A stretch of DNA of 64,000 nt from an uncultured Methanosarcinales archaeon (GCA_964344285.1 CAYFMM010000002.1:72-64071), one strand, 5' to 3'. Shown: positions 10,755 to 50,948, counted from the stretch's first letter. The notes: generated by a model from the sequence alone, not told the origin. Translations and numbers: made by a program.

Positions 10755-11846
10755 CTAAAAAGAGTTATTTGAATTTATCTGAGAGGAAGCACCCATACCT
10801 GTTGTTTGATCCTTTTGCTCAGTTACTAATTCTTTAAACGCTTCTTCAATTTCTTTGTGTTTCCAACCTGTTTTTTCCATTAAAATTGCACGGATATCTT
10901 CGTCAGTTGTGCCCATTACATGTTCTTTTTTAATCCAAGTTTTAAGTTCTCGTAGATCATACACCATTTTAGGTTTTTTATGATAGTAGATTAGTGCAAT
11001 TAAACCAATGATTGCTGCAAGTAAGATGACACCTGCTCCAATGTAAAGAAGGGTCTTATAACGATCAAAAAATGACGTCGCTGTAGGTTGTTGCTGAGGA
11101 CTTAAAGGGATTTGCGGAGGAAGTAAATCACCTGAAACTCTTGAAGGAAGAAGACCTGAGTCGCCTGCACCACATGTTTTTTGCGTATCAGGTTGTAAAG
11201 CTAGAGTGCTACAAGCGTGTTCATCAACACAAGTCCTTTGTTGAATGCCATTAGAACAAGCTGACCAAGCTGAACAGATCCAAGACTCATCACAAACGTC
11301 ACATTCTTGTGTTTCAATTCTGGGTTGTTTGCCACAAGGACTAATATCAACACATTCCCTTACTTGTTGTAGATCAGAATTACAATATGACCAAGTGCCA
11401 CAACTCCACCTAGCTCTACAAAAATACCCACCACTTCCACCAGAAGAACCACCTGAGCTTCCTGGAGCTGAGCCACCAGAAGTTGGAGGCGGAGCTGCTG
11501 TAGTTGTTGTACAGCCAGGAGAGTTTAAACAGAATAATTGAGACGTACTTCCAGAAACACATTCTACGTTAATAGAATACGTTCCATCTTCAGGATTTGA
11601 AGCAGTGTTATAGGTTCTAGTGTAAGTCCCCACACCTCCTGAAAAATAAATTTGCCTATTGTCTGGACCGATTATTTCAAGAGTCGAGGGTTCTGCACAG
11701 TTAACAACAATGGAAACAATTTCATTATCAAGATAATCAGTTGTTGTACCAATGTCAATGGTTTGAGCCTGAACTAAAGCCAAGGAGAGTAAAACAAGAG
11801 TTAGAAAAATAAAAGTTACACGTTGAGTTCTTGTTATTGTTTGCAT
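10755..11846 (-). CDS. Type I membrane protein: signal peptide, beta-rich ectodomain, G/S linker, two 'WSxCxxxxQxRxC[VI]D' Cys-rich repeats, TM, conserved ~40-aa cytoplasmic tail
   Basis: Signal 'FIFLTLVLLSLALVQAQ'. Linker 'GGSAPGSSGGSSGGSGG'. Repeats 'CGTWSYCNSDLQQVRECVDISPCG' and 'CSAWSACSNGIQQRTCVDEHAC'. TM 'IGAGVILLAAIIGLIALIYY'. Tail 'LKTWIKKEHVMGTTDEDIRAILMEKTGWKHKEIEEAFKEL'. Confidence 0.6.
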   Translation of the reverse strand: MQTITRTQRVTFIFLTLVLLSLALVQAQTIDIGTTTDYLDNEIVSIVVNCAEPSTLEIIGPDNRQIYFSGGVGTYTRTYNTASNPEDGTYSINVECVSGSTSQLFCLNSPGCTTTTAAPPPTSGGSAPGSSGGSSGGSGGYFCRARWSCGTWSYCNSDLQQVRECVDISPCGKQPRIETQECDVCDESWICSAWSACSNGIQQRTCVDEHACSTLALQPDTQKTCGAGDSGLLPSRVSGDLLPPQIPLSPQQQPTATSFFDRYKTLLYIGAGVILLAAIIGLIALIYYHKKPKMVYDLRELKTWIKKEHVMGTTDEDIRAILMEKTGWKHKEIEEAFKELVTEQKDQTTGMGASSQINSNNSF

Positions 11847-11873: not shown

Positions 11874-14084
11874 TTAACTTAAGATGATTCCTTGTTCTGT
11901 TGTTTGCACTGCATCTAAACTTTCAGTAAGCACGCCTGATGCATCTGGTGTATAATCAAAAATAATTCTTGCAAAGTTTCTTGCTGCTTGAGACGCTGGT
12001 GCATCTTGAACAAGAACTTCTCTTTGTGCCACGTAATTAGTGCCAGTTGGATTATAGCTGATTAATGCGTCGTAATTTGTTACATCTCTTACAACCTCTC
12101 GTTTGAAAGCAAGGATTACATTATTTGCATCATAGAGTGTTGTGTAAATTGTTAGTTGAGGGATTACTGCACCTGATTCAGAACTAAGTGTAGAACCAAA
12201 ATTCACAGTTGGACTACTTGCAATTACAGGTGGAGCTACACAAGCACCAACATCAATTTGACATGTTACAGGATCACAACTTAGACTTCCTGTTGCTCCA
12301 GCAACTGTTTGAGAAGCACAAGTTGCTGCTCCAAAGTTTGTACCATCACATTCTTCTCCAGCATCAATTACAGTGTTTCCACAGGTTGTTGGAGGAATTG
12401 TTACCGCTGTACAAGTTGCAGTTGTAAGGTCACAGGTTCCAGATGCGCACATTGAGTCAGTAACACAAGTATCACCACCTACCAAGTTTTGACATGCAGC
12501 ATTGCCATCACAATCCAAATCTTCACAATCTACTGGACCGTCACTATCATCATCAAAGCCATCATCACAAATTAATTCTGTTGCGGTAGGAGGAGGAGTT
12601 GTTGTACATTGAGTTACATCAAAATTACAAGTTGCATCACAACTTAACACACCCCCAGTAAAGGTTGAAGCCGGATCATAGTCAGTACAGTCTAGGCCTG
12701 CTGCATAAGAAGGCGTAGCACTGAGATCACATTGTTCAACTGTTGAATCGAATAAGCCGTCGCCACAAGTTGTTGGAAGACTAGAGGTTGGGACACATAG
12801 TTGAGTTGAAGAATCACAGACTCTTCCCGCTGGACAAGCATTAGGATCTAATGGATCGCAAGGTGAAAGGCATGTGTTTAAAGAAGGATCCCATGCACCA
12901 CCTGCTGTTGTACACGCTCCAGAAGTTGTACAACCTATAAGGTTAGTGATATCACAAAAGGAGATCACACAAGTTCCAACGCCAGCAACAGCTGCAGATA
13001 AATCACAAACTTCCCCACCAGAACAATCAGAATCTGTTCGACAAGTACTAGTTGTTGTAAGAGTACAGGAATCACCTAATGTTGGGTCACATGCCCGGCA
13101 TGTCAAGGAGGTTGTATCACACACATTTGTACCTGGACAATCAGTGTCTGTTACACAACTTAAAGCAACACAAGTGTATGTTGGTGTAGCACCAGAATTA
13201 TCACACATAGGAAGAAGAGGATCTGCAGTACAGTGCGCATTTGCAGTACATTCTTGAACAACAATTGGATCACTAATACCATTTGTAATTAAGTCAACAC
13301 TTGCAGTTGAGTCTAGGCTAAAGACATCAAAGGAATTGAAATTAAAATTGTAAGTTCCTGGTGATTGAGGTGCAATAGAGATTAGCGCAACCATAAAATT
13401 GCCAGTTTGTGCATTCGTTGGGTTAAAAGTAGTGTAATCAAAGTCAATTACTGACCCTGTTGCTGTATCAGTACAACTTCCAAGTGGAGTTCCCAAAGAG
13501 GAACTTGTCTCCCAAGTAGATAAACCTGAGCTCTCGACAATCGAGGTCACATCTGCACAACTTAATGAAGGGTCAAGTGCAAGTTGAAACATGACACTTA
13601 CAGTCTCAGCAGTCCCAATGTTTGATCGAATTTCAAGGTTAATATTATCAGAAAGTCCAATGGCAACTGTCGGTGTACTAATTCCTGCAGTGTTTAAATC
13701 TCCAGTATAAAATGCTCTTCCTGCTAATTGATCGGAGAAAAGTAAGAAAAGGCTTAGAATTAAAATTGCAATTACTGCAATACCTGCAATGATCCAGATC
13801 TTTTTGTTTGAGTTTTTTTGGGGCAAATACATCGATTGATTTTGTGTAGCCAATTTTTGTAGAGGAATACGGTTACCAAGATAGGCCTTTGTATTTGTTC
13901 TCTGGTTTATTCTAGTAGGTCTTACGATTCTTTGTGCATCTAATTTTGCTTTTAGTTGTTTTGTTGCAGAAAGGTTAGATCTTTTAGTAGAGCTAACACT
14001 AGAACGGATAGGACGTTTGGAGATCCTTGAAGTCGTTTTTGGTGTTCTTTGTGTCCCTTTTTTCATCGTTCTTTTTTTTGCCAT
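11874..14084 (-). CDS. Type II membrane protein (basic 'MAKKR...' cytoplasmic N-terminus, single TM) with large Cys-rich ectodomain containing Myxococcus-type 'CGDG...GEECD' cysteine-rich repeats
   Basis: TM 'IWIIAGIAVIAILILSLFLLF'. Repeats 'TTCGDGLFDSTVEQCD...' and 'TTCGNTVIDAGEECDGTNFGAATCASQTVAGATGSLSCDPVTCQIDVGAC'. The ORF is 736 aa and Cys-rich. Confidence 0.65.
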   Translation of the reverse strand: MAKKRTMKKGTQRTPKTTSRISKRPIRSSVSSTKRSNLSATKQLKAKLDAQRIVRPTRINQRTNTKAYLGNRIPLQKLATQNQSMYLPQKNSNKKIWIIAGIAVIAILILSLFLLFSDQLAGRAFYTGDLNTAGISTPTVAIGLSDNINLEIRSNIGTAETVSVMFQLALDPSLSCADVTSIVESSGLSTWETSSSLGTPLGSCTDTATGSVIDFDYTTFNPTNAQTGNFMVALISIAPQSPGTYNFNFNSFDVFSLDSTASVDLITNGISDPIVVQECTANAHCTADPLLPMCDNSGATPTYTCVALSCVTDTDCPGTNVCDTTSLTCRACDPTLGDSCTLTTTSTCRTDSDCSGGEVCDLSAAVAGVGTCVISFCDITNLIGCTTSGACTTAGGAWDPSLNTCLSPCDPLDPNACPAGRVCDSSTQLCVPTSSLPTTCGDGLFDSTVEQCDLSATPSYAAGLDCTDYDPASTFTGGVLSCDATCNFDVTQCTTTPPPTATELICDDGFDDDSDGPVDCEDLDCDGNAACQNLVGGDTCVTDSMCASGTCDLTTATCTAVTIPPTTCGNTVIDAGEECDGTNFGAATCASQTVAGATGSLSCDPVTCQIDVGACVAPPVIASSPTVNFGSTLSSESGAVIPQLTIYTTLYDANNVILAFKREVVRDVTNYDALISYNPTGTNYVAQREVLVQDAPASQAARNFARIIFDYTPDASGVLTESLDAVQTTEQGIILS

Positions 14085-14105
14085 TGTAAACCTCTATTTT
14101 ACCTC

Positions 14106-15086
14106 TTAAATTAATCCTGCTGCAGTCATGAAGTTTCTTAGAGATGCAACTACTTGTGAAATTATTTGCCCCACAGATAAGGAGTTATCATTAAGTGTGT
14201 TTGAAATTTCTTGTACTGTTGGAGTACATAAACCCCGTACTTCATCTCTTGCTCCGTCACAAGTACAACCTGAAGCCGCTACGTCTTGGTTATCTGTACA
14301 AGATGTTGCTGGAGGTGGAGTTGTTGCAACTGCACACGTCCCACTTACACATGAACCTGAAGCACACATAGAACTATCATAACAAAAGGAACCATCAGCC
14401 AAGTTAGAACATACACCAATTGTTGCACCGTGACATTGTGTGTCTTGACAATCTATTCTTCCATCCCCATCATTATCATTCCTATCTTGACATAATGCAG
14501 GAGTGTTTTCTGTTGTTGGAGTTGGAGCCGTACAAGCCGATGTATCTATTTGACAGGTTACAGGGTCACAAGATAAACTTCCTCTTGAGCCTGCTCCAAC
14601 TTCAGAAGCGCAAGTTGCTGTCCCAAAGTTTGTGCCGTCACATTCTTCTCCTGCATCAATGTTACCATCCCCACAAGTAGGAGCTGCAACAACACTTAAA
14701 GTAGAAGCTCCAGGTAAAGCAGTTGTTGATCCTTGAAAAATAACTCCACCTGTAAAAACACCTGATGTTGCAGTTGTGGGAGCAGTTACGACATAAGAAT
14801 GAACCGGTGAAGCTGGAATTGAAGTTAATGCCAACTTAAGATTTTGTCCGTTTTGTCTAAAAGAACCTACATCCGAGATTATCCAACCTGCAGGAACTTT
14901 TTCATCAATAGCATAGAAGAGCTCTCCTGCTGCAGGAGTTGCAGTAATTGTAACTGTCACAGTATTCCCTTGAGTCGCTGGGTCTGGACTAAAGGAACGT
15001 GTTGCAGTCCCTGCAAAAGCCATGGGCAGAAGTAGTGCAATTAACGCCACTACGATTATTAATTTCATATTTGTATTTTTCATCAT
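14106..15086 (-). CDS. Secreted protein: beta-sandwich N-domain + Myxococcus-type Cys-rich repeat + 'CQDRNDNDGDGRIDCQD' Asp/Cys-rich module
   Basis: The ORF track runs 14106..15116. I place the likely start at the internal Met giving 'MMKNTNMKLIIVVALIALLLPMAFAG', which removes the overlap with the upstream gene. Repeat 'TCGDGNIDAGEECDGTNFGTATCASEVGAGSRGSLSCDPVTCQIDTSAC'. Confidence 0.55.
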   Translation of the reverse strand: MMKNTNMKLIIVVALIALLLPMAFAGTATRSFSPDPATQGNTVTVTITATPAAGELFYAIDEKVPAGWIISDVGSFRQNGQNLKLALTSIPASPVHSYVVTAPTTATSGVFTGGVIFQGSTTALPGASTLSVVAAPTCGDGNIDAGEECDGTNFGTATCASEVGAGSRGSLSCDPVTCQIDTSACTAPTPTTENTPALCQDRNDNDGDGRIDCQDTQCHGATIGVCSNLADGSFCYDSSMCASGSCVSGTCAVATTPPPATSCTDNQDVAASGCTCDGARDEVRGLCTPTVQEISNTLNDNSLSVGQIISQVVASLRNFMTAAGLI

Positions 15087-15087
15087 C

Positions 15088-15900
15088 TTAGCACCCCGAG
15101 ATATACCAATTATCAATTACTTGGAATAAATCTGTTATAGTTGCAGTACCCGCGTACCAACTGTCGATATAGGAAAATAATTCTGGAACATCAATACAAC
15201 CACTGTTATCTGTATCGCCTAAAAGAGTAGAAACTGTTGTACAACCAGTAGTATCGATTTGACAAGTAGTGGGATTACAAGAGAGAGTTCCTCCAGTAAA
15301 AGAGCCAATATCATCGCATGCAAAACCCTGTAGGTCTGAGCTATCACATTCTTCATTACCCTCTATAATACCGTTCCCACAATTAGGAACAATTATGTTT
15401 ACCGTTCTTTGAGTAGGATCTTGAGAAGCACTAGTGGCGTAAGAACTTCTAAGGGAACCAGAAGCTACCATCCTATTAAAAAAGAATTCTACTGATCTTG
15501 GACTTGTCCCTGCTTGGTAAGTTGCAGTTGCAAATAACAAGTTATTACCAACTACAAAGTTAGTTCCTGAGAGAAGTTCAGGAAGAGGTCTCGTCTCAGC
15601 ATAACGCCATCTAAAATTTTGAGAGACATCATTAATAGTAGATGTAGTTGAAAGTAAATTCTCTCCTTGTTGAGAAATTCTCGTAACTCCACTACTAGAG
15701 TAGTATTCAAATTCTGCATAAGTAAGAGCCTCGTCAGTTGGAACATCCAAATAAACTTGCACATCAAAGGTCTCCCCTACGTAAACAGTTTGAGGGACTA
15801 CAACACGGAAGTTTACAGTTGCTTGAACACTTGTAACAACTAATGAAAATATAATTAATAAGAGTAAGAAAAATTTGAATTTATTGGTTTTTATTTTCAT
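15088..15900 (-). CDS. Secreted cohesin-like N-domain + Cys-rich repeat + C-terminal Ca-loop dockerin-like module
   Basis: Signal 'FKFFLLLLIIFSLVVTSVQA'. N-domain 'TVNFRVVVPQTVYVGETFDVQVYLDVPTDEALTYAEFEY' follows the cohesin strand pattern. Repeat 'CGNGIIEGNEECDSSDLQGFACDDIGSFTGGTLSCNPTTCQIDTTGC'. C-terminus 'GDTDNSGCIDVPELFSYIDSWYAGTATITDLFQVIDNWYISGC' has an EF-hand/dockerin-like DxDxSGxxDxxE loop. Confidence 0.6.
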   Translation of the reverse strand: MKIKTNKFKFFLLLLIIFSLVVTSVQATVNFRVVVPQTVYVGETFDVQVYLDVPTDEALTYAEFEYYSSSGVTRISQQGENLLSTTSTINDVSQNFRWRYAETRPLPELLSGTNFVVGNNLLFATATYQAGTSPRSVEFFFNRMVASGSLRSSYATSASQDPTQRTVNIIVPNCGNGIIEGNEECDSSDLQGFACDDIGSFTGGTLSCNPTTCQIDTTGCTTVSTLLGDTDNSGCIDVPELFSYIDSWYAGTATITDLFQVIDNWYISGC

Positions 15901-15903
15901 AAT

Positions 15904-18195
15904 CTAACACCTAAAACTGGTTTGTGAGGTTCTGCCATTACTACATAAGTGTAAGTCACTAAAAACACGACAAGCTTGCTGATTGCTTGAACCACAATTT
16001 GGTTGAGGGTTGTTGATTAGACTAAATATAAGTTGCTGCACAGCTGCATCTAGTCCATCAAGTATTCCATTACCATCAAAGTCATTGTAAAGATTGTTTG
16101 GCAAGTTTGGATCTTGGCAGGTAAAGGAAGTTTGTCCTGCTTGCCCATTTCTACAGATAAAACCCACTGAATGAGAGCAAGCAGTTTGTTTGTCTATTCC
16201 GCAAGTAGGTTGTGTTGCTGCTCCAGTTACAATTACGCTAAACGCATCTAAATCAAATTGAGTAATATCTCCATCTCCGTTAGTATCCCCTATTGGAAGA
16301 TAAGAAACATAGGTACAAGCCATGTCTAGAGCACAATCATCGTCATTACAATCATATTGTCCATCTAAGTCGTTATCGATTGTATCTGCACATTGCGTTT
16401 CAGTTGTTGGTGCACATCTTGGTAAAGAACTACACTCAGAGTCATCACAATCCACAAACCCATCTTGGTCATCATCCATATTGTTGTCACAAACTTCTAA
16501 AGGAGGCAATTGTGAAGGATTATGAACTGCAAGATTAGCGATTGTTCCTGGAAATAATATAGTGTCATAAACACGAATTTCATCTAAGTGGCCGTTTAAT
16601 CTAGTGCTTGCTTCTGCACCAAAGAAGAGTGTTTGAGCATTAGCCGTCCTTAAATTTAAGTAATCAGTCCCTTGTTTATTTGCACTCCCAGTAGTTGCAT
16701 ATGGGACTGAATAAGCTGGAGCTGCAAATCCATTTACTGTAAGTGTATGGCTAAAACCCTGAACGATGTTGCCCGGAAGAATCGGGTCTATTTGAATTGC
16801 AATATGGTTCCATTGATTAGGCCTAATTCCGGACTTAGTCATTGCTTGATTTCCGTTAACATACAATTGAACTGCACCATCAGCATAGAATAAAGACAGG
16901 AATGCAGTCGTCCTTGTGGGCGGTAGTTTACTAGAACCCCATTGTAAAATCCCTTGACTTGTAAGAGAAGATGTTGGTTTAAACCAGAAACTAATTGTGC
17001 GAGAAGTAGTTAATTGCCGAGGAAAGGCGTAAGGAATTGATAAAAAGCTAGAGCCAGGTGTTGCATATGCACCACGTTGTGTCGAATAAGTATTTAAAAT
17101 ACCATCTGTTGGAATAACTGATGCAGATCCAATAACACTTGCAGTAGTTGCTGTTAATGTTCCTTGGTTTGTGATTCTTGAGCCACTTGTTTGCGCGGTA
17201 AAAGGGAAGTAAAGCTCCACTGGAAGAGTTGCAAGGTTTTGGACAATCTGAGTTTGAGTTGATGTATCAGAAGTAGTTTGAATTGGTGTTTCTGTTGAGC
17301 CTAATTTATCAAGTAGAGAACCTCCAACTGCCCCCGCAGGCTCTAAGCCCCTAATAGGGTCTTTTTGAAGATCTGAAACCAACCCTTTAATTTCACTACA
17401 AGGAGTGTATTGAGAAGGCCAAGGAGAAGTTACACCAGACTGCACCTCTTGACAACCCGTTATATCCAATGTACCAAAAGCATTATTCCTTCCTGAAATT
17501 CGTGATGCAACGTTACATACAACATCTGATTCTGAATTAAAACAAACCTGGTTATCCTGGATTGTTGAAAGATCTGCGTTATTGATTACAAGACCTTGTT
17601 TATTGCCATGAATACGATTATTTGATAATTCTAAACGTTTAGGAGAACTTAGTACAATTCCAAAGACATTTGAAGTGAGTGTATTTTCAGTTAATTTTAG
17701 GTCAGTGATTGAGACTTCTTTGTTTAAACTAGTTGCCTGAATTGCAAAATCATAATTTGTAAAAGTACAACCCTGGATTGTTACACTATTGCTCTTGATT
17801 AATGCACCATAATCACCTTGAGATGCACTGCCATCAATTGTAAAACCTGGTTCACATTTTATTGTCACTGCACGATTTTCAATGTTAAAGCAAGTTTGTC
17901 CCTTAGAAGCTAAGTCAGTAATCACACGATACTCTACAAAAGGTTCAAGCTCAATCCCTTCATCAGTCGGGCATGCTGTTAATTCTTTAATTGGTTTTCC
18001 ACTTTGACAAATCCCAGATACGCAAGATTCTCCTGGATAACAATCTGCATTAACTTTACAAGCAGAACCAATTGCTTGTCCAAATAAGTTGCCAGTCCCT
18101 GAAACATTAAAGTAAAGGAGAAGCGAAGCTAAAAAGATGATACCAACAGAGATACTCGCTATTAACCAAGCCTTATGTTTATCCACCATGTACAC
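15904..18195 (-). CDS. Large surface protein: signal anchor, right-handed beta-helix (pectate-lyase-like) repeats, LamG/ConA-like lectin domain, Asp/Cys-rich module, two dockerin-like Ca-loop modules each followed by a 4-Cys segment
   Basis: Beta-helix 'LSNNRIHGNKQGLVINNADLSTIQDNQVCFNS'. LamG-like 'TISFWFKPTSSLTSQGILQWGSS...LYVNGNQAMTKSG...WNHIAIQ'. Asp/Cys module 'CDNNMDDDQDGFVDCDDSEC...CADTIDNDLDGQYDCNDDDC'. Dockerin-like loops 'GDTNGDGDITQFDLDAFSVIV' and 'NDFDGNGILDGLDAAVQQLIFSLIN'. Confidence 0.6.
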   Translation of the reverse strand: MYMVDKHKAWLIASISVGIIFLASLLLYFNVSGTGNLFGQAIGSACKVNADCYPGESCVSGICQSGKPIKELTACPTDEGIELEPFVEYRVITDLASKGQTCFNIENRAVTIKCEPGFTIDGSASQGDYGALIKSNSVTIQGCTFTNYDFAIQATSLNKEVSITDLKLTENTLTSNVFGIVLSSPKRLELSNNRIHGNKQGLVINNADLSTIQDNQVCFNSESDVVCNVASRISGRNNAFGTLDITGCQEVQSGVTSPWPSQYTPCSEIKGLVSDLQKDPIRGLEPAGAVGGSLLDKLGSTETPIQTTSDTSTQTQIVQNLATLPVELYFPFTAQTSGSRITNQGTLTATTASVIGSASVIPTDGILNTYSTQRGAYATPGSSFLSIPYAFPRQLTTSRTISFWFKPTSSLTSQGILQWGSSKLPPTRTTAFLSLFYADGAVQLYVNGNQAMTKSGIRPNQWNHIAIQIDPILPGNIVQGFSHTLTVNGFAAPAYSVPYATTGSANKQGTDYLNLRTANAQTLFFGAEASTRLNGHLDEIRVYDTILFPGTIANLAVHNPSQLPPLEVCDNNMDDDQDGFVDCDDSECSSLPRCAPTTETQCADTIDNDLDGQYDCNDDDCALDMACTYVSYLPIGDTNGDGDITQFDLDAFSVIVTGAATQPTCGIDKQTACSHSVGFICRNGQAGQTSFTCQDPNLPNNLYNDFDGNGILDGLDAAVQQLIFSLINNPQPNCGSSNQQACRVFSDLHLCSNGRTSQTSFRC

Positions 18196-18286
18196 CTTCT
18201 TTTTAGAGAAAAAGAAGTATACAGAGACTTATAAATGTATCGTTATAGCGACGAGGAGGTTTAGAGTTAGAAAAAGAAGATAAAAA

Positions 18287-18946
18287 TTAGCAACCATTAG
18301 TATACCAGTTATCAATCACATTAAAAAGATAATTTGTTTCAATTATGTTAAGGTACCAACCATCAATAAAGGAAAACAATTCCGGAACTCCAACGCAGCC
18401 ATCCCCAGTTGTGTCCCCAATAATAACAGAAGGAGAAGAAATTACAAGAATTCGGTTTTGAGAGACTGAAGAATCAAAAAAAGAATTTCTTGTAACAGTT
18501 GCACCAAAAGGAGCAGAAGTAGTTGGAAGATCTAGAATAAACGAGCCAGGAAGATAAGATACTGCATCGATGGTTGCAAGTAGACTATTACCCTGGAATG
18601 CAATCCCTCCCGATACATCCATTTCAGAAAAAGACCAAGAATTATATCCGTAAGGTGATTGTTCAAGGCCCGTGCTCGTTATTTCCACCTGAGATGTTTG
18701 AAACATATTATTTGAATTAGCAGACAAAAAAACTACCTCCAAAGGATTTCCTGTTCCAATTGCAGTAAGTTCAAAATCTGCTCCCGTTATTGTTTCTGAG
18801 ATGGGAACATTAACATAGATTTCAATTTGAAAAGGTTGCCCTTGTTGCACAGTGGAAGGAGCATCAATAGAGAATTCAACTACTGCCAAAGTAGAGACCA
18901 TGCTAACCAGAAAAAAGGTAAATAAGAAAATTAATGTAGAGCGCAT
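18287..18946 (-). CDS. Secreted cohesin-like N-domain + C-terminal dockerin-like module (paralog of 15088..15900)
   Basis: N-domain 'AVVEFSIDAPSTVQQGQPFQIEIYVNVPISETITGADFEL'. C-terminus 'GDTTGDGCVGVPELFSFIDGWYLNIIETNYLFNVIDNWYTNGC' is near-identical in architecture to the C-terminus of 15088..15900. Confidence 0.6.
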   Translation of the reverse strand: MRSTLIFLFTFFLVSMVSTLAVVEFSIDAPSTVQQGQPFQIEIYVNVPISETITGADFELTAIGTGNPLEVVFLSANSNNMFQTSQVEITSTGLEQSPYGYNSWSFSEMDVSGGIAFQGNSLLATIDAVSYLPGSFILDLPTTSAPFGATVTRNSFFDSSVSQNRILVISSPSVIIGDTTGDGCVGVPELFSFIDGWYLNIIETNYLFNVIDNWYTNGC

Positions 18947-18947
18947 T

Positions 18948-20054
18948 TTATTTTTTCAAAAATTTATCAACCTTAAGAGGATCCCATCCCCTAGCAACAA
19001 GTCTCGATTTAATCATCTGACCATTCATCCCTCGTTGTTTTGACTTAGTAATGTATTCCTTTAGCGGTGCATATTTTTTGTTATTTGAACGAATTAAGAT
19101 AATAGCTACTACAACAAGTGCAAGCAGTGTTACTCCACTAACTACTGCAGCAACCCACGGAAATTTTGAACTAGAATCAGTATTGCCACCTGCTAAAGGT
19201 TGTGCATCTTGACAAAGTACAAGTAAGGGATCACAAGTACCAGGACAAATTTGTAATATATCGTATCCAGACCCATCAAAGGAACATTGCTCAATTACAT
19301 CACCGTTACATCTTTTTGTATTTGGTTCACAGAACTGTTGTGCTGCTGCAACCCGAGAGGGTTGACAAGTTCTTGATTCTTCAGGTTTAGGTATTTGTGT
19401 AACGTTCATGGTTGCAGGATTACAGTTGTCAATTCTTACACAAGTTCTTGTTTGTTGCGCTCCCTGACATGTTGTCCAACCACTACATTGCCAGTTATAC
19501 CTACAAGTCGTACTTGATTCTTGTGCTGAGGTTGTATCAGAAGAACGAGAACTACCACTTCTTCTTGAACTCCCTGAGCTACTTGGACTGTCTGAATCTG
19601 AAGAATCGGAATCAGAATCCGAACCTGAAGTAGTGTCGTCAGTAGTACCAGTATCACTTGAGTCTGAAGTTGCGGGAGCAAGATAATCCAAATTAAATTG
19701 TTCTACAGTTCCAGCAGAATATGTTGCTGTGCCCACAGGTTGACGAGTTCCAAAAGTATCAAGAACAAAAAAAGTTAAAGTTGCATCTTGAGCAGTGCGA
19801 ACCTTCAAAGTAGGAGAATACCCATATTGAGCATTGGAAATTTGAGTTCTTGTTAGTTCTGTTCCAGAAGACTCCACCACTAAAATAAAAGTGCCAAGAG
19901 GAAGATTTTGAATTGAGCCATAAAATTGATGAAAATCAGTTAAGGACGGAGGGTTGTTTTGTGCCACTGCAAGAGAGGCTAATGAGAAAAGCATACAGAG
20001 AACTATAAGTAATGTTAAAAAACGCTGCAAGGTTGTTTTGCTTCCTTGGTTCAT
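18948..20054 (-). CDS. Type I membrane protein: signal peptide, ectodomain, Ser/Asp-rich linker, WxC Cys-rich repeat region, TM, conserved cytoplasmic tail (paralogous architecture to 10755..11846)
   Basis: Start taken at the internal Met 'MNQGSKTTLQRFLTLLIVLCMLFSLASLAVAQN', an ATGA 4-nt overlap with the upstream gene. The ORF track extends to 20099. Linker 'SDSSDTGTTDDTTSGSDSDSDSSDSDSPSSSGSSRRSGSSRSS'. Cys repeat 'CRYNWQCSGWTTCQGAQQTRTCVRIDNC'. Tail 'LKEYITKSKQRGMNGQMIKSRLVARGWDPLKVDKFLKK' aligns with the tail of 10755..11846. Confidence 0.6.
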   Translation of the reverse strand: MNQGSKTTLQRFLTLLIVLCMLFSLASLAVAQNNPPSLTDFHQFYGSIQNLPLGTFILVVESSGTELTRTQISNAQYGYSPTLKVRTAQDATLTFFVLDTFGTRQPVGTATYSAGTVEQFNLDYLAPATSDSSDTGTTDDTTSGSDSDSDSSDSDSPSSSGSSRRSGSSRSSDTTSAQESSTTCRYNWQCSGWTTCQGAQQTRTCVRIDNCNPATMNVTQIPKPEESRTCQPSRVAAAQQFCEPNTKRCNGDVIEQCSFDGSGYDILQICPGTCDPLLVLCQDAQPLAGGNTDSSSKFPWVAAVVSGVTLLALVVVAIILIRSNNKKYAPLKEYITKSKQRGMNGQMIKSRLVARGWDPLKVDKFLKK

Positions 20055-21631
20055 TGTAATGTATACCTCATTGTTAAGCCACTTGTCGAGTAAATCCAAT
20101 AAGGCCTTCCAGGGATAAGAGGGGTCGTTGGATCAACTTGCGTACAGACATAATTTTGTGCACACGAAAATAGGTTAAACTGTTGTTGTCCTACAAAGTC
20201 AGTAAGTGGCCTTGGCACAATTCCAGGAATGGAAATTAAATTCCACTGAGGTGCAATGATTCTTGTTTGCTCAGTAGGTGAAGGGACAAGTGAAGCAGGC
20301 ATTAAATCTTGTACATTACAAGTAAAGGAAACAGTAGTTGCTTGGGCATTTGTTAATTCTAGGAAATATCCTTCAAAAAGATTGAATTGTGAAATATCAC
20401 CAGGAGAGTTTTGTGATGCCACTACTGGTGCTCCATTGTTAAATGAATAAATTCTTGCTATCTCTGGGTTAGCTGTAAGGAACCGATCAACTTGAGGGCT
20501 TGTTGGAAGACAAGGAAATGCTAGAGGCTGAAGTTGTGTTGTTGCTCTAAGAGTTGCTTCAAATGTTGCTGTTGTTGCAGTAGTAGAAGTCATGCGTAAA
20601 GCAGGGTAATTTTGTTGTTGTTGTGCAAAGACAACATTGCCAACAGCAAAGGTGTAATAGGCATGTGTCTGTTGGGATTGAACGGTTGCAACGATGTCAA
20701 GAACTGCCGCAGTCGAGGAAGAGGGGGCCTGCCAAGAGAAACGTGCAGAGGTAGAATTGTCTACTAATCGTTGTTGAAGATTTGTTAATGGAAGTGCAGA
20801 AGTTTGTCCATTTACTGTGATTTGTGCAGTTATGTCTGGCGAAGTTACACTTGTTGCATTGATGATTCCAGAAAAGGTAGCACCTGGCTGTAAGGAGATG
20901 ATTGGAGTCTGAGCAGTTCTTGGAGGCGCCAAAGTTGCATCAAACACTTCCACAGCAGAAGGTGCTGCATTAACATAGTGTAAGTTTGTAACAGTGATTT
21001 GATTATTTTGAAGTGTTACTTGAAGGTCTGCAATTGGATCTGCTGTAGTGAGGTGAAGGACGGTATTATCGTTTGGAAGGGTAACTTGGTCACGTACTAT
21101 GATCCGATTTGGGTTTGCAGGAGTAGTTGCAGGATAACTTGTTTGAATTGTAAAATTGTAAGTTGGTTGTTGAGCTGCACTAAGAGTTGAAGATGGTTTT
21201 TGTTGAATTGTAAAATTATAGGTCCTATGCGTGAATGAAAGAGGGTCATCAGTAATATTAAAAGTCACAGTCACCGGATTTTGTGGAAGTGTCGTAAAGA
21301 TAAAAGATTCTTCCGTTACTAAGTTTACAGGAGCAATTACTGGCTGAGAGCCAAAGAAGATTGCTTGCCCTACCTGTCCAGAGTAAAACGTCCCAAAGAG
21401 AACAACAACAATGATTAAAAGCAAAGCTATGCTTACAAACATAAAGATACCTTTACCAGATTTTTTTTCTTCGTTAAATTGAGTTGTTGTGTTTTGAGCA
21501 GAAGCACCATTACTAGAAGGAGTAGAGGAGTTAGAAGAAGATCCAGATTGTAATTGTTCTTCAGCTTTCTTTTTAAGGAGAGCTTTTGCAGTTGCTCTTG
21601 TACTCGCTTTTGATGCTGTTGTTTTTGCCAT
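20051..21631 (-). CDS. Type II membrane protein ('MAKTTASK...' basic/Ser-rich cytoplasmic N-terminus, one TM) with beta-rich repetitive ectodomain
   Basis: TM 'IFMFVSIALLLIIVVVLFGTFY'. Internal repeats 'RTYNFTIQQ.../PTYNFTIQTS...'. Many NxT/S sequons. Confidence 0.55.
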   Translation of the reverse strand: MAKTTASKASTRATAKALLKKKAEEQLQSGSSSNSSTPSSNGASAQNTTTQFNEEKKSGKGIFMFVSIALLLIIVVVLFGTFYSGQVGQAIFFGSQPVIAPVNLVTEESFIFTTLPQNPVTVTFNITDDPLSFTHRTYNFTIQQKPSSTLSAAQQPTYNFTIQTSYPATTPANPNRIIVRDQVTLPNDNTVLHLTTADPIADLQVTLQNNQITVTNLHYVNAAPSAVEVFDATLAPPRTAQTPIISLQPGATFSGIINATSVTSPDITAQITVNGQTSALPLTNLQQRLVDNSTSARFSWQAPSSSTAAVLDIVATVQSQQTHAYYTFAVGNVVFAQQQQNYPALRMTSTTATTATFEATLRATTQLQPLAFPCLPTSPQVDRFLTANPEIARIYSFNNGAPVVASQNSPGDISQFNLFEGYFLELTNAQATTVSFTCNVQDLMPASLVPSPTEQTRIIAPQWNLISIPGIVPRPLTDFVGQQQFNLFSCAQNYVCTQVDPTTPLIPGRPYWIYSTSGLTMRYTLQ

Positions 21632-21653: not shown

Positions 21654-24600
21654 TTATCTTCTTACTTCCACTTCAGTATAATAATTATTGTTTGCCCTAT
21701 CTTCGTTAATTTTTTGTACAATGATTTGAATTGCTTGCCCATCTAAAGTAATAGCCCTTGTATCTCCTTGTGCAAATAAACGATCAAGGATTACTTGTCG
21801 AGGAGTTGCAGAGACATCTGTTATTCGGAGATTGATTAAATCCGTGGGAGTTGCTGTTAATTGTAACACGTATTGATTTCCAGCAGGAGTTGTTACAAAA
21901 TCAAGTAAGCTTGCAGGGAAGGCTCCAACAGTAGAAGTATGGTTAATAGCAATACTTGAACCGTCAGTAGGAACTACGTTGTACGAACGTAGTGCGAATG
22001 TTGCATCAACCGTTCTTTCGTTGATTGGCCCACTTAAGGATTGAGTAATGTCAACAATATTTTGTCCAAGTAAAAGAGTCCCACTTGAAAGGATTGGAGA
22101 TTGCGATTGTATATTTTGAATAGAACTTAATTGTCCTGCAGGATAAGATTGCATTGCAAAGTTTTGTAATAAGCTATCTTGTGCCACTGGTTGGTATAGG
22201 GCGCCTGAGATATTAAACACAGGAACGTCGTTATTAATTACTTGCCCAGTAAAAGCAGTCCAGTTGGTTGGGCCATATGCAGGATTAGTTGAATCTATTC
22301 TTGTTACTTTTCTAATTGTTACTTGTTTATTTTCTCGCGTTAGACCATTTGATTCCAAGACATATTCTTGACCAGCTAAAGTAAGGTATTCATTCCCATC
22401 CACTACAAGTTGTTGCGCTGCTGTAGCTCCCCAACAAACATTTGCTGCAGTTAGGTCTTGGTAAATTTGTTGGTTACATAACTGGAAGCGTTGATTATTG
22501 ATTAAAACACTGTTAGTAGTTGTAAGAGTAAAAGAGTTTTGAGCAACAAAGTTAAGGCTATCTCTAATATCTTGAGAGAGGTAGTAAAATCTAATGACCC
22601 TATTTGGACCTGGAGAACTAGGAATAATAAATTCCACATCCCCTTGAGGGAGAGAGAACATTGCAACTAAGTCTCCATTTCGAGTTTCTAAAGTTGGCTG
22701 ATACACTTGTTGATGGTCTAATGAATAAATTCTTATTTGCTGCATGTCAAAAATTTGAGTTTGTGTATTTTGAGCAGCATAACCAACTGCATAATAGACA
22801 ATTGCATTGGTAATCGGAGTTGTAACTGCAAGAGCAAATTCATTACCGCTGGTTAAATTATTAACAAAGTATTCATCAAATGTACGTTGAGCATAACCAA
22901 GAATATTTGGAACATCATATCTCCTGTAAATAGATACTGTTTTAATAGGAGTATTTCCGTTAACTTGAATGTTGTCGTAATAATATAAGTACGGTCCTCG
23001 CTGAAGAGGTTGTTGATAATTTAGAGAAACTGGTGTTCCACCCACATCTAATTGGAACGTTGGCTGAAACGTTGCAAGATCATTTTGTGCAACTGCAACT
23101 ACCCCTTCGTTTTGAGGAGAAGTAATCCTCACAGGTGTTTGTGAAGACATAGAGACAAAGAGTTGTCCATTTAAATCAACTGGAGTGTCAACTACTTGTT
23201 GAGCTGTTAATGCACTAATTTGGAATGGAGGTGGAGGGACACCATAGTTTCGTTGGATAGTGATTCTTCCTCCATTTAGAGTTGAAAAGTGTGCAATATC
23301 TTCACTGCCAGTTGCAGGGATAGTAGTTTGTCCCGAAGCAGTATAATGAACTAAGTTAATGCTTTGTAAAGATAATTGTGTTTGTTGGGGATGTTCTAGT
23401 AAGTAGACATTATTTTGAAAGCGCACTGCTTTTCTTCTACCTGCAATCATTGCGTTAATAAAGTCATTGTAATTGAGATTAGATTGTGTATTTGCTAAGT
23501 CTGTAAGTGTGAAGATAGATACTTTCTTTTCATTTCCATCATGTTGATAGAGAAATGCATAATCTGTTGTTTGTCCACCTGCAGTCACTGGAAGCACTGT
23601 TAAGACATCACGACGCAGAGTTGCAAGAGTTTGTGCGCCCGCTCCTTGATCATTACATAGTAATGCTTGTTGTAAGTCTGCAGAATTGTCTTGACGGCAG
23701 ATAGTGAGTACACCTAGTGGGTTTGATGCAGGAGTTGTGATGTCAACGGGAGCATTAAGAGCTACTTGAATTTCGTGATCTTGTTCCAAGTTAAAAGGAG
23801 TTACAAAGTTTGCAGGTGCTTCTCCAACATTTCCTGCACGGACCATTACCTGTCCTTGGTTAATTGTGACTATAATTGTCCTACTATTTTCCACATCAAA
23901 GACATAACTATTTGTTCCGGCGTATTGTTGAGCAGCATACGTGGTTAACCTTGGAATGTGGCGAAGTTGGAGCTGATCTAGTGAGAATAAAGTTTGTCCT
24001 GAAGCATGAGTTAATTCATAATATTGATTTTCTAAGACGAATAAAAGAGACTGTCCTTGAATCAAATTTTGTGAAAATATGCCTAAAGGGAATTGAATAC
24101 CTTGTCCCCCTACAGAGATAGAGTTTGTTAGAATTGCATCTACTTGTTTTTGTGATCCTTGAGTCGGTTGTTGATAAAGAAAAGTTATTTGCTGATTCGT
24201 AGTCGGGTTTCTATTTGCATTACGGAGCACAGAAAGTGATTCTATTGGATTTTGTGGAGAACCTTGCAAGCAGACAGTTGCCCTATCTGCTACAGATTGT
24301 GTCCCTTGGTCACAAAGGTAAAGGCCGGGGTGTATCGAAGATCCTCCGGCAGTAGCCGCACCAATATAAGTATTAATGTTGTAACATCCATCATCTTGTA
24401 AAGTGAGAGAGTATGATGCATCAAAGTGAAATCTTTCGTCAAAAATAGTTGTAGGATTTACATTAGGATTACAGATTTGCCATTGTCCGCTACTACAATA
24501 AGCTTTCTCACCACCAGTAGTTGTTCTGATTAATCCTTGAATTTCAGGTGTATTATCGCATTGTTCCCAATCTCCAGAGGGAGTACAAAATAAATTACCC

Positions 24601-24977
24601 ATAACGCCAGTCCCTGCTCCTTCTGAAAAACAATTTAGCCCTCCAAACTTCATGGCACAACTTGCTTGACTTGGGCAACATAATTCTAAAGGAACAAAAG
24701 AAGATGGCACTTCAAAATTACCTGTAGAAGGGTTGTATTGATTAATTCTGCTTGAGATCAATTGGCTTCCTGAAGAACATGATTGACCAGTAAGTACAGT
24801 ACCAACTCCTAAAAAAGCTTGTCCTGCTAAGGCTTGATTAAAGTCTTGATCTTGTTGTGAGTCTATAGCACTTGGAGAATAGTAAAAAGAAGCAACAATA
24901 CCTAAAATCACAACAAAAATGAGAGACGTAACTAGAACGGTCTTTCTATTTGCCTCTTTTCCACTCTTTAATGCCAC
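21654..24977 (-). CDS. 1107-aa signal-anchored surface protein with Cys-rich N-terminal module and long beta-rich Gln/Asn/Thr-rich ectodomain
   Basis: N-terminus 'MALKSGKEANRKTVLVTSLIFVVILGIVASFYY'. Cys cluster in the first ~230 aa. No enzymatic motif recognised. Confidence 0.55.
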   Translation of the reverse strand: MALKSGKEANRKTVLVTSLIFVVILGIVASFYYSPSAIDSQQDQDFNQALAGQAFLGVGTVLTGQSCSSGSQLISSRINQYNPSTGNFEVPSSFVPLELCCPSQASCAMKFGGLNCFSEGAGTGVMGNLFCTPSGDWEQCDNTPEIQGLIRTTTGGEKAYCSSGQWQICNPNVNPTTIFDERFHFDASYSLTLQDDGCYNINTYIGAATAGGSSIHPGLYLCDQGTQSVADRATVCLQGSPQNPIESLSVLRNANRNPTTNQQITFLYQQPTQGSQKQVDAILTNSISVGGQGIQFPLGIFSQNLIQGQSLLFVLENQYYELTHASGQTLFSLDQLQLRHIPRLTTYAAQQYAGTNSYVFDVENSRTIIVTINQGQVMVRAGNVGEAPANFVTPFNLEQDHEIQVALNAPVDITTPASNPLGVLTICRQDNSADLQQALLCNDQGAGAQTLATLRRDVLTVLPVTAGGQTTDYAFLYQHDGNEKKVSIFTLTDLANTQSNLNYNDFINAMIAGRRKAVRFQNNVYLLEHPQQTQLSLQSINLVHYTASGQTTIPATGSEDIAHFSTLNGGRITIQRNYGVPPPPFQISALTAQQVVDTPVDLNGQLFVSMSSQTPVRITSPQNEGVVAVAQNDLATFQPTFQLDVGGTPVSLNYQQPLQRGPYLYYYDNIQVNGNTPIKTVSIYRRYDVPNILGYAQRTFDEYFVNNLTSGNEFALAVTTPITNAIVYYAVGYAAQNTQTQIFDMQQIRIYSLDHQQVYQPTLETRNGDLVAMFSLPQGDVEFIIPSSPGPNRVIRFYYLSQDIRDSLNFVAQNSFTLTTTNSVLINNQRFQLCNQQIYQDLTAANVCWGATAAQQLVVDGNEYLTLAGQEYVLESNGLTRENKQVTIRKVTRIDSTNPAYGPTNWTAFTGQVINNDVPVFNISGALYQPVAQDSLLQNFAMQSYPAGQLSSIQNIQSQSPILSSGTLLLGQNIVDITQSLSGPINERTVDATFALRSYNVVPTDGSSIAINHTSTVGAFPASLLDFVTTPAGNQYVLQLTATPTDLINLRITDVSATPRQVILDRLFAQGDTRAITLDGQAIQIIVQKINEDRANNNYYTEVEVRR

Positions 24978-25120
24978 ACTCTATCAGTAGAAAATGAAAT
25001 TTTTTGTGTATATAAAGGTTGCTATAAAGGACAGTTAAGATACGTAAGCACAAGACACTTGATTGAACACTAGGAAAGAAAGAAAAGAAAAAAAAAGGAT
25101 AGAAGAAAAGGATTAAAAAG

Positions 25121-25133
25121 AGCGCCACGGGCC
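25121..25133. repeat. 13-bp direct repeat 'agcgccacgggcc' identical to the 3' end region of tRNA-Ser at 47342..47354 (candidate distal att site)
   Basis: Exact 13-nt GC-rich match in an AT-rich genome, same orientation as the tRNA copy. No cloverleaf can be folded around this copy. Confidence 0.4.
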
Positions 25134-25585
25134 CGCAGGGGACAATCTTGACCAAGACAGTGAGATTTAAAGCTAAAGTGCGCATTCTTTCGAGGTCTGA
25201 TTAGAAGATAGCCGTACCCATTTTATTTCACAAGTACCAAAGCTTACATTTAAAAAGAACAAAATAATCCAAAGAACATGTTAGTTTTTGGCACAGATGT
25301 TCCCCTCATCGAGATTATATTCTCATTAGCTATTTTGACTTTTCTTATCCTTGCAGAAGTAATTATCATCTTGGCATTAATGATAAAGAGGATGAATGAG
25401 TGACCAAGGAACAAGATATTGCTCAGAGATTCCAAATAGAGAACATTTGTATAACTGCGTAGTTTCAAACACAGATAACTCAGACATTTTTATTACAACT
25501 CCAAATGAGCAAACAAGAACCATGACAAACACTTCAAGTAAGAGTGAATCCGTAATTGAGTGTGTTAAAGTTAATTAGTTTTTTT

Positions 25586-37571: not shown

Positions 37572-38452
37572 AGTTTTTTTGTCCTCACTGTACTCTTTAT
37601 TAATAGGATACCACTATTATTTTCAAGATAAGGCAAATGATCTTCGGTTAGCCTAACTACCAATCTTGCTTCCGATTCTTTAATAGACCTTACTTCTAAA
37701 GAGATAGGAAAACTATCCAAAAAATTGTTGATAATCTTTTGATTCCAATCGCTAGAGTTTCCAGAAACCTTTTCATCTAAATGAGTATTAAGATAAATTA
37801 TAAAATAATCATCTCCACCAGATTGAATCTTTTTTATAACTCCTTCCTCAAACAGAGGCCCTTCCCTTTGGTTTAGTAAAATGATTCTCTCCACAAAAGA
37901 TTCTCCATTAGAAGGAACCATTGCTACATGAGAAATCAATGGGTTTTTATTCAAGTCTTTCAAAGCTCCCAGGACATCTGCTCCAGTAAAAGAGAGGTGG
38001 AATATTTCCCCTCCATTCCAATCTAAACCCCCATCTAAAATAAGATATTCTTCCTCCTCAACCAAAGACATTAAAGAAGAAGAGTCTCCAAGATAAAGAA
38101 TCACAACTTCATGATTTAAGAAAGCAGAAGACTTCTCCAAACCATAATCATAAATACCAAACTCAACTGTTTCTTTCACATCTGGATCTAACCCTCCATA
38201 AACATACACTAAATCACTCCTAATAAATAATAGCCCATATTTCTCATCTGCTAAATCTGTAAATTCATAATATCCATTTTCATCTGTAAACGTTTCTGCA
38301 ACTACAGATAAGTTTTGAATCAGTTGAACTTTTACTCCTTCTTCACTCGGAGTAATCGTTCCAGAGATAGAATCATCAGTACACCCTACTAAAAACAGTA
38401 AAGCAAACACAGCAACAAGTATTTTAAAATTATTTTTCATTCTTATTATCAT
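37568..38452 (-). CDS. Lipoprotein with N-terminal carboxypeptidase-regulatory-like (transthyretin-like) beta-sandwich domain
   Basis: Lipobox 'LFLVGC'. 'ISGTITPSEEGVKVQLIQ...ETFTDENGYYEFTDLADEKYGLLF' matches the CarbopepD_reg-like pattern. A 4-nt overlap with the subtilase gene suggests co-transcription. Confidence 0.5.
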   Translation of the reverse strand: MIIRMKNNFKILVAVFALLFLVGCTDDSISGTITPSEEGVKVQLIQNLSVVAETFTDENGYYEFTDLADEKYGLLFIRSDLVYVYGGLDPDVKETVEFGIYDYGLEKSSAFLNHEVVILYLGDSSSLMSLVEEEEYLILDGGLDWNGGEIFHLSFTGADVLGALKDLNKNPLISHVAMVPSNGESFVERIILLNQREGPLFEEGVIKKIQSGGDDYFIIYLNTHLDEKVSGNSSDWNQKIINNFLDSFPISLEVRSIKESEARLVVRLTEDHLPYLENNSGILLIKSTVRTKKL

Positions 38453-50364: not shown

Positions 50365-50374
50365 GGGTATAATA

Positions 50375-50947: not shown

Positions 50948-50948
50948 A

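Follow-up and report, generated by a model that had tools for sequence, protein, structure and literature searches.

The 64,000-nucleotide (nt) stretch analysed here (GCA_964344285.1 CAYFMM010000002.1:72-64071, labelled as an uncultured Methanosarcinales archaeon; the window) encodes two secreted proteins that end in the same module of 43 amino acids (aa), referred to below as the tail. The tail is a one-loop derivative of the GC-type dockerin fold, and both this variant and its non-cohesin context are new by comparison with the domain libraries and the literature. On balance we lean towards the tail being a compact docking tag by which its carriers are attached to a beta-sandwich receptor, for which the protein encoded directly downstream of the first tail gene (the ND protein) is the best candidate; physical binding between the two is what we infer from the arrangements described below. 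The carriers and their tails are located as follows (family A is the set of related modules defined below).

15088..15900, minus strand: carrier 1 (P0001), 270 aa, with a Sec signal peptide, a beta-rich N-domain, one CGNG..EECD Cys-rich repeat and the tail.
15091..15219, minus strand: single-loop GC tail module of the 270-aa protein, residues 228–270 (family-A hidden Markov model (HMM), E 1.8e-24), consisting of the EF-hand loop DTDNSGCIDVPE, helix 1 (ELFSYIDSWY), a turn (AGTAT), helix 2 (ITDLFQVIDNWY) and a terminal SGC.
18287..18946, minus strand: carrier 2 (P0002), 219 aa, with a Sec signal peptide, an N-domain and the tail.
18290..18418, minus strand: single-loop GC tail module of the 219-aa protein, residues 177–219 (family-A HMM, E 2.2e-20).

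The two tails, GDTDNSGCIDVPELFSYIDSWYAGTATITDLFQVIDNWYISGC and GDTTGDGCVGVPELFSFIDGWYLNIIETNYLFNVIDNWYTNGC, are the exact C-terminal ends of the open reading frames (ORFs) 15088..15900(-) and 18287..18946(-), and both finish in Gly-Cys directly before the stop codon. An initial annotation of this DNA had described these C-termini as nearly superimposable, and this was confirmed by BLASTP, which found the last 47 residues to be 55% identical (E 2e-16). It had also given each tail one EF-hand-type loop (D1, D/T3, S/D5, G6, E12), as borne out by both sequences: DTDNSGCIDVPE and DTTGDGCVGVPE are canonical 12-residue EF-hand loops with ligands at positions 1, 3, 5 and 12, Gly at position 6 and a hydrophobic residue at position 8. 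Both window tails have V-P at loop positions 10 and 11, which vary across family A. The two Cys residues, placed about 31 residues apart in that description, are C8 and C43 of the 43-mer, a spacing of 35. A six-frame motif scan and the family HMM found these to be the sole two copies in the window. The proportion of synonymous differences between them (pS) was 0.73 against a non-synonymous proportion (pN) of 0.32, and 13 of the 25 identical residues differ in codon; the similarity is therefore neither chance nor a recent copy, and by these measures the tails are old paralogues, derived from an ancient duplication and held under purifying selection.

Relatives of the module occur beyond this genome. 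When 1.84 billion cluster representatives were searched exhaustively by HMMER with a profile of the two tails (E <= 1e-3), 66 proteins matched, and on inspection these resolved into two architectures: family A, 39 modules with the layout of the window tails (alignments A3/A5), and family B, 21 modules (A4) with two complete loop–helix repeats ending in ...WFAGC. The family-A loop has D at position 1 in 38/39 members, D or N at 3 in 35/39, D, S or N at 5 in all 39, G at 6 in 36/39, I or V at 8 in all 39 and E at 12 in 38/39. The loop is followed by a helix (EL.x[YF]I[DG]xW[YK]), a turn (x-G-x-[VIA]-x-[IM]-x-[DE]) and a second helix (L.x[VA]I[DG]xW[YK]), usually ending in ..GC. Carriers of family-A modules are diverse and secreted (NosD/beta-helix, LamG, LRR/fn3, polysaccharide deacetylase, F5/8 type C and NHL-propeller proteins), with the module lying no more than seven residues from the C-terminus in 33/39 cases and internally in six. 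At one locus (L093, 778..8068) it is present in four consecutive genes, with a C-terminal copy in a polysaccharide deacetylase and in a beta-helix protein and an internal one in a 160-aa protein and in a 1,023-aa beta-helix protein; this 8-kb contig contains no ND or cohesin-like ORF.

Other search routes returned little. In word-indexed searches of 5.8 billion proteins the tails alone found no relatives, the full proteins matched only through the CGNG..EECD Cys repeat, and the 39-member profile gave four short fragments only. A DNA-pattern scan of 185,579 species-representative genomes found no tail, a scan of Joint Genome Institute (JGI) metagenomes found only two loci of the WY subtype, and tblastn of the carriers against plasmids found no match; cluster look-ups of the carriers returned 'hypothetical protein' only, including one Woesearchaeota record. 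Searched as a single sequence against the PDB, the tail gave EF-hand loops only (E >= 0.24). The tail family is widespread and is not captured by curated Pfam or NCBIfam models.

By profile comparison, family A is demonstrably homologous to the GC-type dockerin of NCBIfam (NF041540). All 21 family-B members match NF041540, and hhalign of family A (A3) against family B (A4) gave 97.2% with an E of 4.7e-11 over 45 aligned columns, in agreement with the relationship to dockerins suggested initially; matches of family A to the NF041540 model itself were sub-threshold in each of the 4/39 members that gave one (best E 0.0022). The A-versus-B alignment contains one 16-column gap, which falls exactly at the inter-repeat linker and loop-2 positions 1–5 of family B; the 'single-loop' condition is therefore a degenerate second repeat and not a missing one. 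Consistent with this, the window sequence W-Y-A-G-T-A-T-I-T-D-L-F keeps loop-2 positions 6–12 (G6, hydrophobic residues at 8 and 10, an acidic residue at 12) and lacks the D1/D3/D5 ligands. The term 'single-loop' used in the initial annotation holds in that one loop is complete, but helix 2 and the second half of loop 2 persist. The two-repeat arrangement of Pfam Dockerin_1 (PF00404) is accordingly not found in the tail, and no family-A member (0/39) matched this model at E <= 0.01. Family B gave full-length matches to solved dockerins (2y3n_B, 2ccl_B, 1ohz_B and others) at E 0.02–0.2 only, and the link of the tail to canonical dockerins is transitive and weak.

An AlphaFold2 (AF2) model of the first tail, computed with the 39-sequence alignment, had a predicted local distance difference test score (pLDDT) of 94.7 and a predicted template modelling score (pTM) of 0.71, and comprises a loop (residues 1–13), a helix (14–25), a five-residue turn and a second helix (31–44). 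In pairs of EF-hands, position 8 of one loop bridges to the partner loop. In the tail model DSSP assigned an isolated beta-bridge that joins residue 12, at loop position 8, to the Gly of the terminal GC, residue 45, with the C-terminal strand taking the place of the partner loop and Cys11 (loop position 7) lying beside Cys46. Across family A these two Cys co-occur: 22 members have both, none has the loop Cys alone, five have only the terminal Cys and 12 have neither (Fisher p 1.6e-6). This is how a disulfide behaves, and we share the initial view that Cys7 of the loop and the terminal Cys are probably so bonded. A second, optional pair (a pre-loop Cys and one at loop position 4) is present in seven members, with one having only the loop-4 Cys, two only the pre-loop Cys and 29 neither. 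The two helices also co-vary: helices 1 and 2 from one module are identical at 4.9/10 positions, against 3.3/10 between modules (permutation p <= 5e-5), the excess lying at positions 3, 9 and 10 (F/F, M/M, L/L; W/W, Y/Y; Y/Y, K/K, F/F). Such co-variation gives a two-fold symmetry of the same kind as that of canonical dockerins. Binding of Ca2+ by the tail loop is predicted from the loop consensus only.

Dockerin-like tags, the one-loop form included, are an already known kind of module. Naturally truncated dockerins of about 40 aa, with a single Ca2+ loop followed by a helix-loop-helix, have been described as group 2 of Ruminococcus flavefaciens (Duarte et al., 2025; PMC12270676); their affinity for the ScaE cohesin is high, with two dockerins bound per cohesin, and they are found at the C-terminus of non-enzymatic carriers that include an LRR protein and a cohesin-like module (PMC12270676). 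The window tail has this same layout in the AF2 model. The bacterial group differs in being cellulosomal and derived from group-4 dockerins, in having Gly-Arg at loop positions 10/11 (V-P in the window), in lacking the Cys bracket and the WY/WK helix ends, and in having a bona fide cohesin (ScaE) as its partner; no sequence relationship to the window tail was detected, and its structure was not among the 50 Foldseek matches listed. NF041540 and the window family have in common an extreme C-terminal position, an EF-type loop with a helix ending in an aromatic pair (WF/WY), and a Gly-Cys end whose Cys is probably paired with a second one in a bracketing disulfide. Whereas NF041540 has two full loop–helix repeats (ADFDGNGxVxVxDlFaFLxAWFA, twice), D at loop position 12 and its first Cys before loop 1, the window family has one loop, E at position 12, Cys at loop position 7, and a deletion of the linker and loop-2 positions 1–5. 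The proposal of a distinct, possibly new dockerin/EF-hand variant thus holds for the variant, but the GC terminus had already been catalogued (NF041540) and single-loop dockerins had already been published (PMC12270676). Our literature search found nothing on GC-type dockerins of the NF041540 kind or on EF-hand surface proteins or modules of DPANN archaea.

Canonical type I/II dockerins (PF00404) resemble the tail in their F-hand logic, their duplicated helix symmetry and their role as a tag at the C-terminus of many secreted proteins unrelated to one another, but they are about 60–70 aa long and contain two full repeats of 22 residues, with D at loop position 12, and their partner is a cohesin whereas the most tightly linked candidate partner of the window tail is not. 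Work by Peer et al. in 2009 and Bayer et al. in 1999 reportedly deals with non-cellulosomal archaeal cohesin–dockerin pairs. The archaeal systems and the tail families are alike in having cohesin-like domains in the same genomes and gene clusters. Experimental verification of such archaeal pairs has been published (PMC9012536 and references therein; genomes of anaerobic methanotrophic archaea, ANME). With EF-hands (PF13405/PF00036) the window module has in common the 12-residue loop DxDxDGxIxxxE, the bidentate Glu at position 12 and the following helix; it is predicted to differ in having no entering helix and no paired EF-hand, a C-terminal strand standing there instead in the model, and in being extracellular and disulfide-bracketed.

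The evidence for a partner comes from the gene that follows the tail gene, which encodes the protein below.

14106..15086, minus strand: ND protein, candidate receptor, with a signal peptide (...MAFAG/TATRSF), a beta-sandwich ND domain of about 130 aa and Cys-rich repeats.

This conserved ND domain, downstream of the tail or fused to it, is the most informative feature of the system and was overlooked by the initial annotation. The ATG of the ND gene lies 1 nt past the stop codon of carrier 1 (junction TAAGATG; the ORF is also listed as 14106..15116). An ND gene follows the tail gene immediately in 7/12 loci (the window, L084, L085, L087, L088, L089 and L091), with spacers from tail stop to ND start of 1 nt in the window and L084 (TAAGATG in both), 3 nt in L087, -1 in L088, -4 in L091 and 68 nt in L089, and in L086 it lies 2.7 kb downstream of the tail gene. 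The relatives follow a common pattern of a signal peptide ending ...AG and then TVTRSF...G..V.V.L.V...YAIDE..P.GW.V.D.G..., in which R, P, G, Y, P and G are invariant. In the window a single ORF matches the ND HMM. That HMM was built solely from six downstream proteins, and with it the domain is also found inside module-carrying proteins, with three copies in P0016, two in P0051 and one in P0070; one in P0042 was found with a wider profile. In P0016 and P0051 the order is module, a linker of about 10 residues, then ND (...DNWAEG-SSAGMTIP-TVSRDLP...), and it is exactly at the position of this linker that the stop codon and signal peptide fall in the DPANN loci, a fusion/fission pattern. In all, ND is adjacent, near or fused in 10/12 loci, being fused in two. 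The tail and ND as one interrupted ORF was rejected, the ND gene being in another frame with its own signal peptide. Pfam gave only weak matches of ND to DUF11, NEW3 and MG10, and no solved full-length homologue was found.

A third gene stands next in order.

11874..14084, minus strand: third gene of the cassette, encoding a protein with a membrane anchor at its N-terminus, then a divergent cohesin-like domain (about 13251..13721) and Cys-rich repeats, and without a tail.

The order tail, ND, cohesin-like forms a three-gene cassette in five DPANN loci, two of which have a toxin–antitoxin pair inserted before the cohesin-like gene. Two-gene pairs occupy this place, between the ND and cohesin-like genes, in L084 (2484..3142) and L091 (6101..6738); the L091 pair is annotated NTP_transf_2/Polbeta and HepT-like, the L084 pair was judged to be of the same type from the look of its sequence alone, and L086 also has similar Polbeta/NTP_transf_2 genes. 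ND and the cohesin-like domain are unrelated to each other (hhalign 1%).

The cohesin-like protein opens the alternative of a classical cohesin–dockerin pairing, in which the tail would bind the cohesin-like domain (here that of 11874..14084) to build chains or to anchor the carriers to the cell, and ND would be a mere member of the cassette. In 6/6 DPANN-type loci a separate cohesin-like ORF is indeed located a few kb or less from the tail gene, and in P0008, P0014, P0015, P0019 and P0020 an N-terminal cohesin-like domain, directly after a membrane anchor, is combined with the tail in one polypeptide, that of P0020 matching Pfam Cohesin (PF00963) above threshold (29.8 bits against a cut-off of 24.1). 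Within the cohesin-like group 3/9 members match this Pfam model (best E 4.8e-8), and the group profile placed only cohesins at the top of its PDB search, although these matches, to NagJ cohesins, reached only E 0.013–0.08. The single-loop R. flavefaciens dockerins also bind a cohesin, one of them being joined to a cohesin-like module. Yet the window protein is not recognised directly by the Pfam model, its assignment coming from hhalign against the cohesin-positive relatives (95%, E 2.9e-8, 108 columns); five other loci (L089, L090, L092, L093 and L094) contain no cohesin-like ORF; and the association is looser than that of ND, with the cohesin-like gene nearby but not adjacent and no tandem repeats of module and cohesin seen. 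Cohesin and tail in one polypeptide would, moreover, be expected equally of a scaffold that docks elsewhere. Taken together, ND appears to be the stronger partner signal of the two, and we regard the classical pairing as unlikely.

Under the docking reading that we prefer, the first repeat of a GC-type dockerin fold would have retained its complete EF-hand Ca2+ loop, while of the second, having lost the linker and loop positions 1–5, a tight turn and helix 2 would remain. By binding in this one loop, Ca2+ would hold in place both the loop and the beginning of helix 1. A beta-bridge to loop position 8 would let the terminal Gly-Cys strand stand in for the partner loop, and the helical hairpin would be kept closed by a disulfide joining the Cys at loop position 7 to the one at the C-terminus. 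The two helices would then present pseudo-two-fold-symmetric faces, and the tag, placed on the C-termini of unrelated secreted proteins, would bind each carrier non-covalently to a beta-sandwich receptor on another surface protein. That receptor would be the ND protein (14106..15086), encoded 1 nt downstream, with the membrane-anchored cohesin-like protein (11874..14084) supplying the link to the cell or an alternative receptor. More tentatively, and with some doubt on our part, tail and ND may constitute an undescribed two-component docking pair, an analogue of dockerin and cohesin with a non-cohesin, DUF11/NEW3-like receptor, by which these tiny episymbionts would both assemble and anchor large and varied surface proteins; this narrower proposal would cover both the split, translationally coupled genes of DPANN Woesearchaeota and the fused module–ND tandem arrays of other uncultivated archaea.

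Several observations weigh against the docking reading. At the level of the fold, the window proteins gave no match to PF00404 (gathering threshold 22.9 bits), either as full proteins at E <= 1 or as isolated tails at E <= 10, and none to NF041540 (29-bit cut-off) at E <= 1; EF-hand_6 scored 17.0–17.4 bits with the first tail, against a cut-off of 25, and nothing with the second. The tie of family B to canonical dockerins is itself weak, with 1/21 members matching Dockerin_1, and Foldseek of the tail model against the PDB found nothing significant, the best matches being generic helical hairpins and dockerins appearing only at E > 2. The Fisher and permutation p-values given above ignore relatedness among the sequences. 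With regard to the receptor, the ND association is missing in L092 and L093, and the second tail gene of the window (18287..18946) has no ND gene next to it. The adjacency of ND could also partly reflect inherited synteny in the surface-gene clusters of related genomes, and the same data fit either ND or the cohesin-like domain as receptor.

Lone EF-hands usually pair, and the tail might instead be a Ca2+-dependent stabilising cap or a homodimerisation element, in which two single EF-hands pair to cross-link or stabilise surface proteins. We consider this less likely still than the classical pairing. The loop does resemble true EF-hands: 11/39 family-A members match the Pfam EF-hand models (PF13405/PF00036) at E <= 0.01, E is found at loop position 12 as in true EF-hands, and the family-A profile alone retrieved calmodulin-type loops only from the PDB. 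The internal two-fold symmetry could equally reflect packing of helix against helix, and two of the R. flavefaciens single-loop dockerins sit side by side on their partner. In the AF2 model, however, the place of a partner loop is already taken by the terminal GC strand, which makes pairing unnecessary, and a pure stability cap would leave unexplained the tight and conserved coupling to ND, the repeated module–ND fusions and the dockerin-like distribution among unrelated carriers.

A C-terminal sorting or processing signal comparable to PGF-CTERM/archaeosortase or LPXTG/sortase, with the terminal Cys as a site of covalent attachment or lipidation, would account for the almost invariably extreme C-terminal position and the conserved terminal G-C, and NCBIfam calls the related NF041540 family 'anchored', but this idea was rejected as very improbable given that the module has no hydrophobic transmembrane stretch or basic tail and is predicted to be a well-folded amphipathic hairpin, 12/39 members lack both Cys, six modules are internal, the terminal Cys co-varies with the internal one as in a disulfide and not as a free attachment site, and no sortase-like gene was seen in the cassette.

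Between the two carriers lies a 763-aa NosD beta-helix/LamG protein (15904..18195) whose C-terminus is possibly of a related type.

15907..16290, minus strand: two tandem units, each of an EF-type loop, a helix and a 4-Cys segment, at the C-terminus of the 763-aa protein.

This region had been described as two loops each followed by a 4-Cys segment, accurately so: the loops are GDTNGDGDITQFD and NDFDGNGILDGLD, and the segments, with the pattern CG...Q.AC.......C.NG....QTSF.C, are homologous to each other (48% identity, E 5e-8); no family was found for them. Its assignment to the same module as the tails is suggestive, although the relation is weak, with hhalign giving 64–79% against family A and 52% against the GC-type dockerin profile once the Cys inserts were removed, and a sub-threshold match to Dockerin_1 (E 0.019). 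The region is possibly a divergent relative of the tail module. P0023 has an equal architecture (N-terminal anchor, NosD, LamG, acidic repeats) with a family-A tail at the equivalent position, a likeness that hints at equivalent roles for the family-A tail and the C-terminus of the 763-aa protein.

Outside the tails, carriers 1 and 2 also align at their N-termini, from the signal peptide to about residue 30 of the mature protein (40% identity over 55 aa, E 2e-9, BLASTP). The CGNG..EECD repeat of carrier 1 is of the DUF4215/myxo_disulf type, sub-threshold, and carrier 2 has no match in Pfam or NCBIfam; modelled whole from its single sequence, the 219-aa protein reached a pLDDT of 36 in AF2. A cohesin identity for the N-domains of both carriers was rejected (hhalign to the cohesin-positive group 2.5%, no Pfam match). 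Three neighbouring proteins within 11874..15900(-) have Cys-rich repeats in common, namely the CGNG/CGDG..(E)ECDG...GG.LSC...C..D...C repeat of the DUF4215/myxo_disulf type, which gave the sole non-self matches in the first protein search, and an acidic double-disulfide repeat, C.D..DNDGDG..DC.D..C (NF033662).

Both tail genes are part of an array of surface-protein genes that covers about 27 kb on a single strand. Upstream of the cassette (21654..38452, minus strand) is a run of very large secreted proteins: one of 1,107 aa without a Pfam match, one of 2,482 aa with CARDB, Big_13 and Big_3_4 domains (the CARDB/Ig protein of the array), and a 1,525-aa S8 subtilase with CARDB, HYR and PKD domains. 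The block of tail, ND and cohesin-like genes is flanked by 10755..11846(-) and 18948..20099(-), whose products have homologous C-terminal regions of about 200 residues (25% identity, E 3.8e-9) and no significant Pfam match in either. Four surface-protein genes (11874..14084, 15904..18195, 20051..21631 and 21654..24977, all on the minus strand) encode a basic N-terminus, one hydrophobic helix and a juxtamembrane motif, [LV]xG[QKR]A[IF], in the versions LAGRAF, LFGQAI, VGQAI and LAGQAF; the motif directly follows the helix in three of the four and lies ~20 residues beyond it in 21654..24977. The same motif occurs in P0008, P0009, P0014, P0015, P0019, P0020, P0023 and P0063 and in ORFs of L084, L086 and L087, and in relatives it stands before the cohesin-like domain. 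The motif could be where signal peptidase cleaves, following an n-region of unusual length, or else a conserved element of the anchor. Elsewhere in the window, three tandem paralogous ORFs of ~190 aa with hydrophobic stretches, 49795..51518(+), adjoin a secretion/pilus ATPase of the T2SSE type, 52767..55085(+), and the Woesearchaeota locus L087 (1656..3493) has a similar set of ~192-aa genes.

The window is part of a metagenome contig of 192 kb (PRJEB17505). With regard to the host of this DNA, the nearest relatives of the window SufB are from Candidatus Woesearchaeota genomes (up to 76% identity), and the window organism is therefore a DPANN archaeon. Third-party annotation (TPA) metagenome-assembled genomes labelled 'uncultured Methanosarcinales archaeon', 'Saccharibacteria' and 'Gammaproteobacteria' (L006, L007, L008 and others) have SufB proteins 60–72% identical to that of the window, and P0014, with its DPANN-like architecture, comes from one such genome (GCA_964510085.1); the taxon labels of these records look unreliable.

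DPANN archaea depend on physical contact with a host cell, and genes for large secreted proteins take up much of their small genomes. The family described here has been missed by Pfam and NCBIfam, leaving dozens of protein clusters 'hypothetical' despite a recognisable common module. If the docking reading is true, a very small affinity tag would become available for protein engineering, a stated interest in truncated dockerins (PMC12270676), and the dockerin principle would extend to a shorter module with a possibly non-cohesin receptor. For the organisms themselves, a 43-residue tag stabilised by Ca2+ and a disulfide, together with an identifiable partner gene, would offer a testable mechanism for assembly of the DPANN cell surface.

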